Below the pieces are notes generated by a model. The model was not told the origin of the DNA, did no database searches, and saw only the letters and a list, made by a program, of their open reading frames with translations. Of a DNA stretch of 64,000 nt, positions 27,093-39,636 are shown one piece after another (the first letter of the stretch is position 1; each line of letters starts with the position of its first letter). This DNA is from Escherichia phage vB-Eco-KMB40. The translations under genes and the position numbers were made by a program. Where the stretch lies: sequence record OR539220.1; one strand, 5' to 3'.

Positions 27093-27371
27093 TTATTCTT
27101 TAAATCTAATCAATTTATTCATAGACTTTGAAACTTCTGCACGAACCTCATGTAAGTTTTTAAGCTGTTCAAGACGCTGCGTATAGTAAGCAATTTCATC
27201 TTCTTCGAGACAGTCCTGTGAATCTTCTTTAAGATAACGTGCATAGTCCTGGAAAGCTTTACGGACTACTTCCTGGAAGTCATCAAGACTTTGAATTTTC
27301 TTAGGAGCGACAGATACACGACGAGGTGCAGTATAATACTCATAACCAAACCCTGCGCTTAATTGAGCCAT
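27093..27371 (-). CDS. hypothetical protein (92 aa from ATG at 27371)
   Basis: Track ORF trimmed to ATG abutting upstream stop. Confidence 0.4.
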
Positions 27372-27637
27372 TAGTATTTTTCCTCTGGTTGGAACACTGC
27401 GCGACAAGCCCACATACTGGCTTCTTTGAGTTTCGTTTTAGCAATAGTTAACTGATCGAGGCTTTCGGCGTAATTCTTCGCGAGTTCATCATCTTCACAG
27501 CTATCAAATGCTTCCCAAAATTCATCGTATAAAGCATCAAAGATAAGTCCTAAACGAACTTCAGCGTCTTTAATAGCATTTACTTTACCGATTTTTTCGT
27601 CGGTATGTGGCTTATAACCTTTAATATCTTCAATCAT
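27371..27637 (-). CDS. hypothetical acidic protein (88 aa from internal ATG); occupies T4 vs.4-like position
   Basis: Position only; no motif visible. Confidence 0.35.
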
Positions 27638-27851
27638 ATTTGACTTCCTCACCAGTACATAAATCGTATTCAACTAAACGAATAGGTTCATGAATGCCAT
27701 ATCCCTGAACAGAAATTTCTGTAGTAGGATAAATTCCATTAATATCACCCATGTTCCATGCTTCGTTAAATTGCTGTTCGCCTGAATTACTAAACCATTC
27801 GGCGAAAGCATTTAGCACATCTTCAGAACCTTCAATAATTATCTTTGCCAT
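27630..27851 (-). CDS. hypothetical small acidic protein (73 aa)
   Basis: ORF track; ATGA overlap with the glycyl-radical gene. Confidence 0.4.
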   Translation of the reverse strand: MAKIIIEGSEDVLNAFAEWFSNSGEQQFNEAWNMGDINGIYPTTEISVQGYGIHEPIRLVEYDLCTGEEVKYD

Positions 27852-28213
27852 TACAAACTCTCGGTAAAGGTACGAGCGATAACGTCGCGCTGCTGTTCCG
27901 GAGTCAGAGAGTTAAAGCGAACTGCATAACCGGATACACGGATGGTCAGCTGCGGATATTTTTCCGGATGCTTAACTGCATCTTCCAGAGTTTCACGACG
28001 CAGAACGTTAACGTTCAGGTGTTGACCACCTTCAATTTTAACTGTAGGTTGTGGCTCAATTTCAATTTCACGGGCATGCAAACCATAGAAAATTTCTGGG
28101 TCTACAAAAGAGTCCTCTTTAAAGGTTTTAGAGACAATAATTCGTGCTTGAATACCATCTTCAAAATAAATAGTACCTTTATGTGTGCCTTCAAGAATTT
28201 GATATGCTTTCAT
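27851..28213 (-). CDS. autonomous glycyl-radical cofactor (GrcA/YfiD-like; T4 Y06I family)
   Basis: 120 aa; C-terminal glycyl-radical signature [27 protein letters not shown]. Confidence 0.8.
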
Positions 28214-28220
28214 ATAAACC

Positions 28221-28547
28221 TCAATTAGAAAATAAATTTATCCAAGATTGTTCTTTAATTAAAAATGGCTCAGAATCATATGCCATTAAACTTTGGGTGA
28301 TTAGTCCTTTAAAAGGTCCATCAATAAATTCCATGGTAAAATATGGAATTTTATTCATTAACTGTGCGTTAGGAGCAGTGCACAAAACTCTGCATCCTTT
28401 GAATACGCCTTTTTGTAATTTGTATTGCTTGGGATAAAATTCGCTTAAAATGTTGTTATTTGCCAAAATTTCAAAATGATTTACCAATTTATTTTTAATA
28501 GTTTTTGGCGAAAAATAGAGATATTCGAAAAGCTGTGTGTCTGTCAT
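28221..28547 (-). CDS. hypothetical protein (108 aa from internal ATG)
   Basis: ORF track trimmed to remove overlap. Confidence 0.35.
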
Positions 28548-29137
28548 TATTGCATTCCGATTACGAAAAACTGTGGACGAGTAATACCACCAATGCAACA
28601 TTTACTATTACAGCAGTAGTGTACAGTGTCAATATGGACGCTATAAATCTTATCCATATCAGGAGATTTGACAGGCTCATCAATTATATACAAAATTCGC
28701 GAAAGCGATAAACCTCTGAACTTGCTTCCTTTATTACCAATAAAACTGCGTACAGAATCAGTAAATAAACGAAAACGTATATCATCATTAGAATAACGCG
28801 AAAATTCCTTTTTAATGTTATTTGCAGAAATTTTAGCGTAAGCTGAAGTATTAGAAAGAACAATAACTGTTCCGCCATCATACAGCCAATTAGCAGCAAA
28901 GTTAGTCACAGCAATTGATTTACCGGATTGACGTCCACCATCTATACGAAGTGTGCAGTACTGTTTGAGCACATCTTCCATTGGTGGAAGATAATCATTC
29001 TTACAAAGTTCTTCTACTCTAGCATCAGAATGGTGTGTAAAAGCATTCATCAGGGATAGATAAGGTCCGGTTAAAAATGTTCTCATGTTATTTCTCTTAA
29101 GGTTTTTGGGCCATTCCGTGGCGCATGAATTGTCCAT
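28547..29137 (-). CDS. hypothetical protein with possible P-loop (GGRQSGKS); start uncertain
   Basis: Walker-A-like motif; 5' end lies in GC-rich intergenic stretch. Confidence 0.35.
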   Translation of the reverse strand: MDNSCATEWPKNLKRNNMRTFLTGPYLSLMNAFTHHSDARVEELCKNDYLPPMEDVLKQYCTLRIDGGRQSGKSIAVTNFAANWLYDGGTVIVLSNTSAYAKISANNIKKEFSRYSNDDIRFRLFTDSVRSFIGNKGSKFRGLSLSRILYIIDEPVKSPDMDKIYSVHIDTVHYCCNSKCCIGGITRPQFFVIGMQ

Positions 29138-29230
29138 TTCTGTATTTACCCATTACCGCACTCAGGCTCGACCTTATTACAGGTTGGCGGGAATCCCTCA
29201 TAGAATCATGAGGTCCAGGCTGTTCCCATA

Positions 29231-29704
29231 TTATTTGAACGATTTAACGTACTGAATAGAACCTTTACTATTTACAAAGGCAATTTTACCATTTTTATTA
29301 TACATGGTAGCAGTACGTTGATAACCATAAGTTTGTTTACCAGATTGATAACCAACTAATGCGAAATTATCTTCGCCCATTTTATTCTGTTTAGCGCGAA
29401 TGCGTTCATGACCATGTGCCATAAGAACCTTAGCATCACCGGTTGCAATGGATCGACGAGTTTTTTCATCTTCAACTGTATTAACAAAGTCGTCAAATGA
29501 ATCAAATTTAGCATGTGATTTATTATACAGTTTTCCATCTACTGCATAATTATATCCCTGTACATCCATCTCAACTTCTGTACCATCATCCAATACAGCA
29601 GTGATTTTTTGACCTTTTTTAAATTTCAAAAGATCAGTAAAAGATTCAGCAATAATTTGAGAATTAATAGCTGCTTCAGTGATAAATTCTTGATATGTTT
29701 TCAT
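29231..29704 (-). CDS. internal-protein-like head protein with capsid-targeting N-terminus (157 aa)
   Basis: N-terminus MKTYQEFITE matches T4 IP capsid-targeting consensus MKTYQEFIAE; basic mature part. Confidence 0.6.
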   Translation of the reverse strand: MKTYQEFITEAAINSQIIAESFTDLLKFKKGQKITAVLDDGTEVEMDVQGYNYAVDGKLYNKSHAKFDSFDDFVNTVEDEKTRRSIATGDAKVLMAHGHERIRAKQNKMGEDNFALVGYQSGKQTYGYQRTATMYNKNGKIAFVNSKGSIQYVKSFK

Positions 29705-29713
29705 ATGTTTCCT

Positions 29714-30130
29714 TTAAATGTAAATATTTTTACCGTAATACTTATACCAATGTGGTTTCATTAAAATTTTTTCATCAAGTCGTTGTTGACTCAATTTAAT
29801 AGCTGATTTGCATGGATTATAATCATTTTTCCATTCTACTGGAATATCGCTGATGTCAGGAACTTCAGTATCTTTTATACTGAACCCTCGTTTTAAGCAT
29901 TCCGTTATAATGTCTAATTGACGCTTTCGCAAAAATTCTAACTTATCGTAAAAGAACGTAACATGACCAGAACCTAAAATAAACTCGGAAGATATTTTAA
30001 AATCTTTAACGCGCTTACCGTTTGCCACATGCTTACGAACTATACCAAAAACACGTGGCAATTCACGATATTCTGCAATTAAATGCTGATCAGTAAGTTC
30101 AGATACTAAAGTCAAATTAATACGAGTCAT
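29714..30130 (-). CDS. denV: endonuclease V (pyrimidine-dimer DNA glycosylase)
   Basis: 138 aa; N-terminus [12 protein letters not shown]...[11 protein letters not shown] as T4 endo V. Confidence 0.92.
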
Positions 30131-38512: not shown

Positions 38513-38519
38513 TTATTTT

Positions 38520-38747
38520 TTACGAAAAAATTGATTTATTTTCTGCTGCCCATTTTTCAATAACTGCAGCAGGACCAGTGACAACAATTTTATCACCGTA
38601 ATCTTCTGCGGCGAGCTGACCATACATATTCAATGAACGACCGAGAACTTCCCAAGGCATTTCACCCATTTTATCTTTCTCGCCAGTGTAAATAAACTCA
38701 ACTTTTACATCAGCAGTTTCAGCAATAAATTCTTGATAAGTTTTCAT
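38520..38747 (-). CDS. small internal-protein-like head protein with capsid-targeting N-terminus (75 aa)
   Basis: N-terminus MKTYQEFIAE identical to the T4 IP capsid-targeting consensus; own promoter. Confidence 0.55.
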   Translation of the reverse strand: MKTYQEFIAETADVKVEFIYTGEKDKMGEMPWEVLGRSLNMYGQLAAEDYGDKIVVTGPAAVIEKWAAENKSIFS

Positions 38748-38775
38748 TTTATTCTCCTCAGTAGTTGATAGGGTA

Positions 38776-38805
38776 ATAGTATCACAACTAAAACCCTATG
38801 TAAAC
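38776..38805 (-). promoter_or_regulatory. T4-type early promoter with 7-bp inverted repeat (ATAGGGT/ACCCTAT) spanning the -10 and spacer
   Basis: Minus strand TTTTTCACAAAGTTGTTTACA-N17-TACTAT. Confidence 0.6.
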
Positions 38806-38823
38806 AACTTTGTGAAAAATTTA

Positions 38824-39108
38824 TTACAAAAGATTTTTAGCAATAATTTTAAGCTGAGCTACTGAAATATGCTTGGCTTTAAACAAAGCAGTTTCTTCAG
38901 CAGGGGAGATAACGATTGTAGCACCATCTTTCTTAGCGGACCATCCATCACCCAGGTAAACAGTACCTTTGACTTCTTCGCCATCAACCAGGCTAATCAT
39001 CGGTTTACCTTCACGTCCTTTGTTTGCTTTAATAACTTCAGAAGTAAGGGTCGCTTCAGTCAAAGTAGAAGCGTTAGTGGTTGAAGTGAATTCTTGATAA
39101 GTTTTCAT
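38824..39108 (-). CDS. ipI: internal protein I-like head protein (94 aa)
   Basis: N-terminus MKTYQEF; 94 aa versus 95 aa T4 IPI; immediately 3' of 57B as in T4; mature part divergent. Confidence 0.6.
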   Translation of the reverse strand: MKTYQEFTSTTNASTLTEATLTSEVIKANKGREGKPMISLVDGEEVKGTVYLGDGWSAKKDGATIVISPAEETALFKAKHISVAQLKIIAKNLL

Positions 39109-39138
39109 TTTATTTTCCTAATTAATTTTGATGAGGTA

Positions 39139-39169
39139 ATAGTATCACTACCTCATCAGCATGTAAACA
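39139..39169 (-). promoter_or_regulatory. T4-type early promoter with 9-bp perfect inverted repeat (GATGAGGTA/TACCTCATC) flanking the -10
   Basis: Minus strand AAAGTTGTTTACA-spacer-TACTAT; palindrome arms overlap spacer and start region. Confidence 0.55.
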
Positions 39170-39180
39170 ACTTTGTGAAA

Positions 39181-39636
39181 TTATTTTAAATCATCTGCCC
39201 AATCGAATTTAAGAGGCTCTTTGTATTCACGATCTAATACGACCGGAATTTGTACATCACCGCTAAATGATAAGGGTCCAACATTATAAGACAATGTTAT
39301 ATGCGGTGTGTAATCATCAAAATCATGTGTAGCACCTAGTGCCCGCGCATACATGTGTCGACAGCGCAGATATTCAGAATCTAGCACAAGTACAAGAGTC
39401 GATCCATCTTGTGTTTTCCATACTTCTAAATGTCCAGAAGAAGCTACTTCAAAACTTCCACTTGATGGAACATACGGAACATTTACTCTTGAATAACATA
39501 TGGTCGAATGAATTTTTTCTCTAGGAACTGGATTAGGAACACGTAAAGAGCGCTGAAGTTCTTCCAGCGCATCAAGTGTTAATTCTGAAAACTTAGCTGC
39601 TACATAAAGACCCGTTGAAAAGTCTTTAAATTCCAT
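39181..39636 (-). CDS. 57B: gp57B (T4 57B is the anti-CBASS phosphodiesterase Acb1)
   Basis: 151 aa versus 152 aa in T4; position between ipI and 57A with stop/start overlap. Confidence 0.7.

Follow-up and report, generated by a model that had tools for sequence, protein, structure and literature searches.

The window, a 64,000-nucleotide stretch of Escherichia phage vB-Eco-KMB40 (OR539220.1), includes a Tequatrovirus (T4-like) segment whose gene order is collinear with that of T4 from vs/regB to gene 1. Most genes of the region are 90–100% identical to their T4 counterparts, and the closest genome is that of vB_EcoM_R5505 (96% at the nucleotide level). The features considered here and the landmark genes beside them are as follows.

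26572..27033, minus strand: regB endoribonuclease, a landmark directly 3' of vs.3 (100% identical to T4 RegB; Pfam REGB_T4, E=8e-69)
27093..27371, minus strand: vs.3 orthologue, 92 aa, pI 5.9 (91/92 aa identical to T4 vs.3; PHROG 2037, unknown function)
27371..27637, minus strand: acb2, orthologue of T4 vs.4, 88 aa, pI 4.6, predicted hexameric cyclic-dinucleotide sponge (PDB, Pfam and PHROG matches)
27630..27851, minus strand: vs.5 orthologue, intact 73-aa form, pI 4.1 (PHROG 1986, unknown function)
27851..28213, minus strand: vs.6, GrcA-like glycyl-radical spare part, a landmark (99% identical to T4 vs.6; Pfam Gly_radical, E=2.8e-18)
38824..39108, minus strand: ipI, internal protein I precursor, 94 aa (Pfam PF11634 IPI_T4, E=1.3e-51, residues 19–94)
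39139..39167, minus strand: TG-extended promoter-like site (TTTACA-17-TACTAT) within the 72 nt that separate acb1 from ipI (consensus scan; suggestive only)
39181..39636, minus strand: acb1, orthologue of T4 gene 57B, 151 aa, predicted 2H phosphoesterase acting on CBASS cyclic di- and trinucleotides (Pfam, PDB and T4 identity)
39636..39866, minus strand: 57A tail-fibre chaperone, a landmark (97% identical to T4 57A)

All ORFs named in an earlier note on this DNA are present at the coordinates above and on the minus strand, and for acb1, acb2, regB and ipI the family matches exceed by far what chance would give. Three small acidic ORFs were said to lie downstream of regB; they do adjoin it, but the acidity of the 92-aa one is mild, and "downstream" is correct in plus-strand coordinates only. 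Because all genes are on the minus strand, in the sense of transcription these ORFs come before regB, on its upstream (5') side. The 11.5 kb between acb2 and acb1 contain denV, the lysozyme gene e, nudE, membrane-protein genes, stable RNAs and 11 tRNAs, and an Rfam scan of positions 26000–40700 returned tRNAs only. A dedicated anti-defence island over the 12.5-kb span was considered and rejected, since the genes in between are the ordinary T4 early-region set; the spacing of acb2 and acb1 is the standard dispersed layout of that region. Of the multi-gene counter-defence locus that the earlier note saw in the region, acb1, acb2 and ipI are all present, but "locus" is too strong with acb2 and acb1 11.5 kb apart, a dispersed arrangement that T4 shares.

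When the regB-adjacent ORFs were aligned to Acb2, exactly one of them aligned: 27371–27637, the ORF at the vs.4-like position that had been picked out as a possible Acb2. The gene is intact with an ATG start, from which the 88 aa are counted, while the mechanically called ORF runs out to a TTG at 27673. Its product is identical to the crystallised T4 Vs.4 at 83 of 88 residues (94.3%) and matches PDB 7UQ2 (T4 Vs.4) over all 88 (E=4.4e-53). It scores 71 bits against Pfam PF24729 (Acb2_Tad1_hairpin; cut-off 27; E=9.4e-20) and belongs to PHROG 717 (E=5.6e-32), the Vs.4 family named in PMC10097602. The ligand and hexamer-interface residues of Vs.4 were defined in the same work (PMC10097602), and T12, those of the cyclic-dinucleotide pocket (Y8, H11, K23, R79 and F82, together with S74) and those of the hexamer interface (L29, F33, A66, A73 and A77) are all identical in the window protein, for which the oligomer is predicted. 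Y8, H11, K23, A66, S74, A77, R79 and F82 are invariant in a 27-sequence alignment of the Acb2 family. The five substitutions relative to T4 are E13D, L44F, N46S, C50D and F52L; four fall in the hypervariable hairpin tip (columns ~34–65 of that alignment), and E13D occupies a column that varies between D and E. At the codon level 12 differences from T4 vs.4 are synonymous and five non-synonymous, a pattern consistent with purifying selection. The slot between vs.5 and vs.3 is also shared with T4, as is the length of 88 aa.

The genes vs.6, vs.5, acb2 and vs.3 are joined by overlapping stop and start codons: the vs.6 stop overlaps the vs.5 start (TAATG), vs.5 and the start of acb2 share 8 nt, and the acb2 stop overlaps the vs.3 start (TAATG). 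The 57A stop likewise overlaps the ATG start of the intact acb1 gene (TAATG). Promoter and terminator scans of the region gave site counts no higher than in shuffled sequence, and transcription units were therefore deduced from these codon overlaps, by which acb2 would lie in a tightly coupled vs.6-vs.5-acb2-vs.3 polycistron and acb1 would be linked likewise to 57A. Among the sites, those with a TG extension ahead of regB, ipI and the 38520–38747 ORF alone look like plausible promoters, and the site at 39139..39167 is only suggestive because the regional total does not exceed the shuffled expectation.

The two ORFs coupled to either side of acb2 are both known T4 genes. The vs.5 ORF matches RefSeq T4 vs.5 over the first 18 aa only, owing to a 1-nt deletion at this place in NC_000866; the 222-nt gene is likewise annotated in the T4 genome as re-sequenced (MT984581.1), and full-length vs.5 is found in 986 phage records. 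A novel replacement of T4 vs.5 by the 73-aa ORF was therefore rejected, the difference being the deletion in the old T4 reference. The earlier note named the vs.3 and vs.5 ORFs alongside its counter-defence genes, and one could imagine vs.5-acb2-vs.3 as a dedicated anti-defence cassette in which they supply extra Acb2-like sponges or other counter-defence proteins. Both are small acidic proteins whose genes are translationally coupled to acb2, hundreds of T4-like phages have kept them, and the AF2 model of vs.3 (pLDDT 63.5) shows, after a disordered N-terminus, a helical hairpin that resembles the Acb2/Tad1 hairpin domain in gross shape. This model and that of vs.5 (pLDDT 59.5) are of low confidence because the underlying alignments are shallow (17 and 11 sequences, respectively), and in Foldseek searches of the PDB they gave no match for vs.3 and only noise at E>=2 for vs.5. 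Profile-profile comparison with Acb2 (hhalign) returned probabilities of 6.8% for vs.3 and 0.5% for vs.5, with no homology in either case, and we rejected the view that they are diverged Acb2 copies. Neither has a Pfam match above the curated cut-off, their PHROG families are of unknown function, and they show no relation to any known anti-defence family, a point on which the earlier note was overstated. Nor is their linkage to acb2 universal: in RB43, vs.6 is followed directly by vs.4, and phage Moon has other small ORFs around vs.4. Recombinant Vs.4 alone suffices in vitro (PMC10097602). We consider a cassette of this kind improbable, and hold at slightly longer odds the idea that vs.5 and vs.3 are uncharacterised counter-defence factors working alongside the Acb2 sponge. 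In that case they could, for example, act by binding defence proteins or further immune signals, or ease the liability of Acb2 against decoy-nucleotide systems such as Panoptes.

A second alternative, that this Acb2 allele is weakened or altered in ligand range, arises from the clustering of its differences from T4 at positions 44–52, where four of the five substitutions fall inside nine residues; the ligand spectrum is known to differ among Acb2 homologues (PMC10312549). In the family as a whole, however, this stretch is the hypervariable tip of the hairpin, whereas the pocket and hexamer interface are invariant, and no residue tied to dinucleotide binding, hexamer formation or cA3 exclusion is altered. 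Alleles at least 99% identical are carried by 59 deposited phage records. We regard a change of this sort as very unlikely, and a T4-type ligand range is the preferred reading. T4-Acb2 does not bind cA3, and nanomolar binding of 3'3'-cGAMP by the hexamer has been shown for T4 Vs.4 (PMC10097602) and for T4-Acb2. The residues blamed for the failure to bind cA3 (Y37, A57, L60, D61 and T64) are unchanged in the window protein. The Acb2 of Pseudomonas phage PaMx33 (8H2J, 8IXZ) is related at a level still detectable from a single sequence (E ~0.09), its identity to T4 Acb2 being 24.2% according to the source paper, and its Y11 and K26 correspond to Y8 and K23 here. The broad-spectrum subgroup to which it belongs (PaMx33/JBD67-like, which also bind cA3/cAAG) is distinguished by a trinucleotide pocket that has both R67 and T74. 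In the window Acb2 that combination is absent: R67 is replaced by D61, and the equivalent of T74 is T68, as in T4. Given D61 and the T4-type residues proposed to clash with cA3, trinucleotide binding is not expected, and the protein is predicted to resemble T4 Acb2 in this respect.

The 151-aa gene at the 57B position, which the earlier note had assigned to Acb1, encodes a protein identical to T4 57B at 150 of 151 residues (99.3%). It matches the Pfam Acb1 family (PF23474) across profile positions 1–144 of 144, with a score of 200.8 bits (cut-off 27; E=1.1e-59), and its residues 8–148 align to the solved Acb1 of Erwinia phage FBB1 (PDB 7T26/7T27; E=1.3e-61). The catalytic and nucleobase-contact residues of Acb1 have been defined (PMC9117128). 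The HxT/HxT tetrad H44, T46, H113 and T115 (T4 numbering) is retained as H43, T45, H112 and T114, so that both catalytic histidines, whose conservation the earlier note had proposed to check, are in place. The stacking aromatics Y12, W74, F107 and W147 and the adenine-specific E141 (T4 numbering) are kept as well. FBB1 Acb1, the structural template for the family, is a more distant orthologue from a phage of another host genus, and outside the active site it differs at many positions; the 141-residue alignment takes in both HxT motifs, and judged from it the window protein would adopt the 2H phosphoesterase fold with its C-terminal lid. Compared with T4 Acb1 (NP_049750.1), with which the slot between 57A and ipI, the tetrad, aromatics, E141 and lid are all shared, the window protein has one N-terminal Met fewer (a single ATG where T4 has ATGATG) and a sole substitution, L145F (T4 numbering). 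This conservative change affects the first residue of the lid (residues 145–152) and represents a rare allele, just one phage record being 100% identical among the matches listed.

That the 57B-position gene instead encodes an enzyme for RNA ends, whether an RNA ligase or a 2H enzyme of the LigT type, can be all but dismissed: "RNA ligase" is the product name in RefSeq T4 and many phage records and the description of PHROG 755, and Acb1 and LigT enzymes share the 2H phosphoesterase fold class (PMC9117128), but the name stems from homology, not experiment, whereas T4 57B was found by activity-guided fractionation as a 3'3'-cGAMP-degrading activity, the H44A/H113A substitutions abolish its activity and deletion of acb1 sensitises T4 to CBASS (PMC9117128), 57B is conditionally required on a CBASS host in a transposon screen, and the window Acb1 is one residue off the T4 protein.

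Adjoining acb1 as in T4, ipI is present as the earlier note had supposed, its product being identical to T4 IPI at 86 of 95 positions. Mature IPI* is injected and inhibits the type IV restriction enzyme GmrSD. The leader MKTYQEF is followed by an LTE|A junction that aligns with that of T4 IPI. Most changes lie in the cleaved N-terminal targeting peptide, which is more diverged than the rest and one residue shorter than in T4; the mature 76 residues differ from T4 at three positions only. The gene may add an injected GmrSD inhibitor beside acb1.

We conclude that this is almost certainly a T4-like phage that has the two canonical anti-CBASS genes of T4 in their usual places: protein identity, synteny and every published functional residue are kept. 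By analogy with the T4 experiments, from which catalysis, ligand binding, hexamer formation and counter-defence in vivo are carried over, the acb1 product would act as a metal-independent 2H phosphoesterase, cutting the cyclic di- and trinucleotides of CBASS. Acb2, an 88-aa helical protein, would assemble into a hexamer, and each of its three pockets between subunits is predicted to trap a cyclic dinucleotide such as 3'3'-cGAMP with nanomolar affinity and so withhold it from CBASS effectors. The phage is accordingly predicted to resist cGAMP-, cUA- and cAAA-signalling CBASS as T4 does, and to be open to attack by Panoptes-type systems, which are triggered once Acb2 sequesters their decoy nucleotides (PMC12657218). 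The Acb1/Acb2 pair is already known, and proteins near-identical to the characterised T4 prototypes represent no new biology. The acb1 and acb2 genes occur in about 1,200–1,500 deposited phage genomes, at least one record of which already labels acb2; many public records still label the two genes "RNA ligase" or "hypothetical protein".

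By sequence comparison, acb1 and acb2 are orthologues that barely differ from T4 genes whose products have been characterised by experiment, and they therefore represent genes already known rather than anything new. The underlying observation was confirmed and its anti-CBASS interpretation is supported. ORFs are present at the two positions that an earlier note had assigned to anti-defence genes, 57B and vs.4, and the three small ORFs of the vs.3 to vs.5 group are acidic, as described there.

27093-27371, minus strand: vs.3, 92 aa from its ATG, pI 5.9, PHROG 2037
27371-27637, minus strand: acb2 (vs.4), 88 aa, pI 4.6
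27630-27851, minus strand: vs.5, 73 aa, pI 4.1
39181-39636, minus strand: acb1 (57B), 151 aa

The ORF at the 57B position is identified as Acb1 by three comparisons. Its product covers the whole Pfam profile PF23474 (E=1.1e-59, 200.8 bits, cut-off 27), matches the solved Acb1 of Erwinia phage FBB1 (7T26/7T27, E=1.3e-61), and is identical at 150/151 positions to T4 57B, which was identified as Acb1 by Hobbs et al. (PMC9117128). The sole differences from T4 are one initiator Met fewer here and L145F (T4 numbering). All nine residues named for the enzyme are kept in the window protein, so there is no loss of catalytic residues; these are the HxT/HxT tetrad (H44, T46, H113 and T115), the stacking residues Y12, W74, F107 and W147, and E141, which reads adenine (PMC9117128). 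L145F lies at residue 144 of the window product (codon 39205-39207), where the C-terminal lid begins; this lid is formed by residues 145-152 (PMC9117128) and closes over the substrate. Only one phage record among the matches listed encodes a 100%-identical protein, while hundreds have the T4 residue at 145. L145F is a rare allele and a conservative change. Acb1 was found by tblastn in 1,471 phage records, and the match reaches ≥99% identity in 454. A transposon screen re-confirmed that T4 57B/acb1 is conditionally required on a CBASS host. Public naming is a problem for this gene, which is widely called 'RNA ligase' (RefSeq T4, PHROG 755).

The vs.4-position ORF, put forward as a possible Acb2, is indeed Acb2 and is the sole ORF here that aligns to it. 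The 88-aa product matches Pfam PF24729 (Acb2/Tad1 hairpin, E=9.4e-20), PHROG 717, the family taken for Vs.4 homologues by Jenson et al. (PMC10097602), and the T4 Vs.4 crystal structure 7UQ2 over 88/88 residues (E=4.4e-53). It is identical to T4 Vs.4 at 83/88 positions, with E13D, L44F, N46S, C50D and F52L here, and the codon differences between the two genes comprise 12 synonymous and 5 non-synonymous changes. The cGAMP contacts (Y8, F82, H11, K23 and R79), the hexamer-interface residues (L29, A66, A73, A77 and F33) and the positions of the loss-of-function alleles T12I, S74N and A77I (PMC10097602) are all unchanged. An alignment of 27 sequences, including homologues down to 53% identity, showed the first 33 and last 23 residues to be nearly invariant and the hairpin tip (approximately positions 34-65) to be hypervariable. 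Of the five substitutions, L44F, N46S, C50D and F52L lie within this tip, and E13D occupies a D/E-variable column. T4-Acb2 binds dinucleotides and not cA3 (Cao et al., PMC10312549), which has been ascribed to D61 together with clashes caused by Y37, A57, L60, D61 and T64 (PMC10312549). These residues are all kept in the window protein, which is thus predicted to have the narrower, dinucleotide-only ligand spectrum of T4-Acb2. The protein was found by tblastn in 1,231 phage records (59 at ≥99% identity), and PV390659.2 already carries the gene label 'anti-CBASS protein 2'. T4 acb2 is also known to be the trigger of Panoptes defence.

The neighbours of acb2 were not found to be related to it. 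Profile comparison with Acb2 gave hhalign probabilities of 6.8% for vs.3 and 0.5% for vs.5, and a PDB fold search with their AF2 models, which are poor (pLDDT 63.5 and 59.5, respectively), returned no significant match; no evidence tying either protein to counter-defence was found. Vs.3 and vs.5 do not accompany acb2 in every phage: vs.4 directly follows vs.6 in RB43 and is flanked by other small ORFs in Citrobacter phage Moon. Vs.3 is identical to T4 at 91/92 positions. In PV390659.2 (1681-1959 of the slice L004), the vs.3 gene is mislabelled 'endoribonuclease RegB', with the acb2 label correct in the same record. The 27630-27851 product shares only 18 residues with RefSeq T4 vs.5 (58 aa). 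DNA alignment shows that T4 NC_000866 is without one C (GCCGA vs G-CGA), shifting the frame; the record of a re-sequenced T4 (MT984581.1) has this 222-nt gene in its annotation, with the 8-nt vs.4 overlap, and the full-length protein is encoded in 986 phage records. The ORF at 27630-27851 is therefore an intact vs.5. The window, phage R5505 and MT984581.1 all encode the 73-aa protein with this overlap. The RefSeq T4 entry (3382-3558 of the NC_000866 slice L001) is a frameshifted version of this conserved gene, the 1-nt loss probably being an error in the old reference or a lab-strain mutation.

The earlier note placed the small ORFs downstream of regB (26572-27033); since transcription runs leftward, they are upstream. 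All real genes of the span 26000-40700 are on the minus strand. This 14.7-kb span is matched by 1,193 phage records, 296 of which cover at least 80% of it, the best being the Tequatrovirus Escherichia phage vB_EcoM_R5505 (96% coverage, 96% nucleotide identity). ORF translations were compared with the annotated genes of T4 60000-78000, which showed a collinear order of vs, vs.1, regB, vs.3, vs.4, vs.5, vs.6, vs.7, vs.8, denV, e, nudE, e.2-e.6, e.8, trna.2-4, ipI, 57B, 57A and 1, with 90-100% protein identity to T4 for most genes. TAATG stop-start overlaps join vs.6/vs.5, acb2/vs.3 and 57A/acb1, and vs.5 overlaps acb2 by 8 nt, an arrangement that indicates translationally coupled polycistrons. 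Between acb1 and ipI lies a 72-nt spacer, in which there is a TG-extended promoter-like site.

The multi-gene counter-defence locus proposed in the earlier note is an overstatement: acb1, acb2 and ipI are all present, but they do not form a discrete island. The 11.5 kb between acb2 and acb1 contains denV, lysozyme e, nudE, e.2-e.8, stable RNAs, 11 tRNAs and trna.2-4, and the 'locus' is therefore the normal dispersed T4 early region. The presence of ipI is borne out by its match to Pfam IPI_T4 (E=1.3e-51) and by 86/95 identity to T4 ipI, with only three changes within the mature protein. Three further ORFs start with a targeting leader of the T4 internal-protein type (MKTYQEFI.. or MKSYTQFL..).

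29231-29704, minus strand: DUF7412/PHROG 3155 'internal virion protein', between denV and vs.8
34714-35187, minus strand: PHROG 2280
38520-38747, minus strand: PHROG 8111 'internal virion protein', immediately 3′ of ipI; a TTTACA-17-TACTAT promoter-like site belongs to this ORF

As putative variable injected proteins, these are candidate anti-restriction factors. T4 ipII and ipIII are both absent, and e.7 and segB are likewise absent or replaced.

Further differences from T4 include those of the tRNA cluster, which has 11 genes here vs eight in T4 and lacks the homing endonuclease segB.

33634-34167, minus strand: 171-177-aa ORF in the e.7 slot of T4, PHROG 6869
35574-35924, minus strand: 116-aa ORF 3′ of the tRNA cluster
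35943-36963, minus strand: 11 tRNAs (Arg, His, Asn, Tyr, Met, Thr, Ser, Pro, Gly, Leu, Gln)
37050-37565, minus strand: 171-aa ORF without T4 counterpart, between the tRNA cluster and trna.2

The ORFs at 33634-34167 and 37050-37565 are mosaic replacements relative to T4, and the blocks flanking them are 94-97% identical to T4. A 95-aa ORF listed at 35214-35501 is almost certainly spurious because 35233-35574 corresponds, at 91% identity, to the T4 region of the stable RNAs rnaC/rnaD, for which Rfam has no family. The e.2 orthologue (31158-31646, minus strand) encodes 162 aa vs 102 aa in T4, with the first 95 aa matching. The vs.8 orthologue (28547-29137, minus strand) has 179 aa, counted from an ATG at 29086, vs 219 aa in T4. 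Residues 1-40 of the T4 protein are missing, and this N-terminal loss coincides with the recombination breakpoint where the internal-protein-like gene is inserted.
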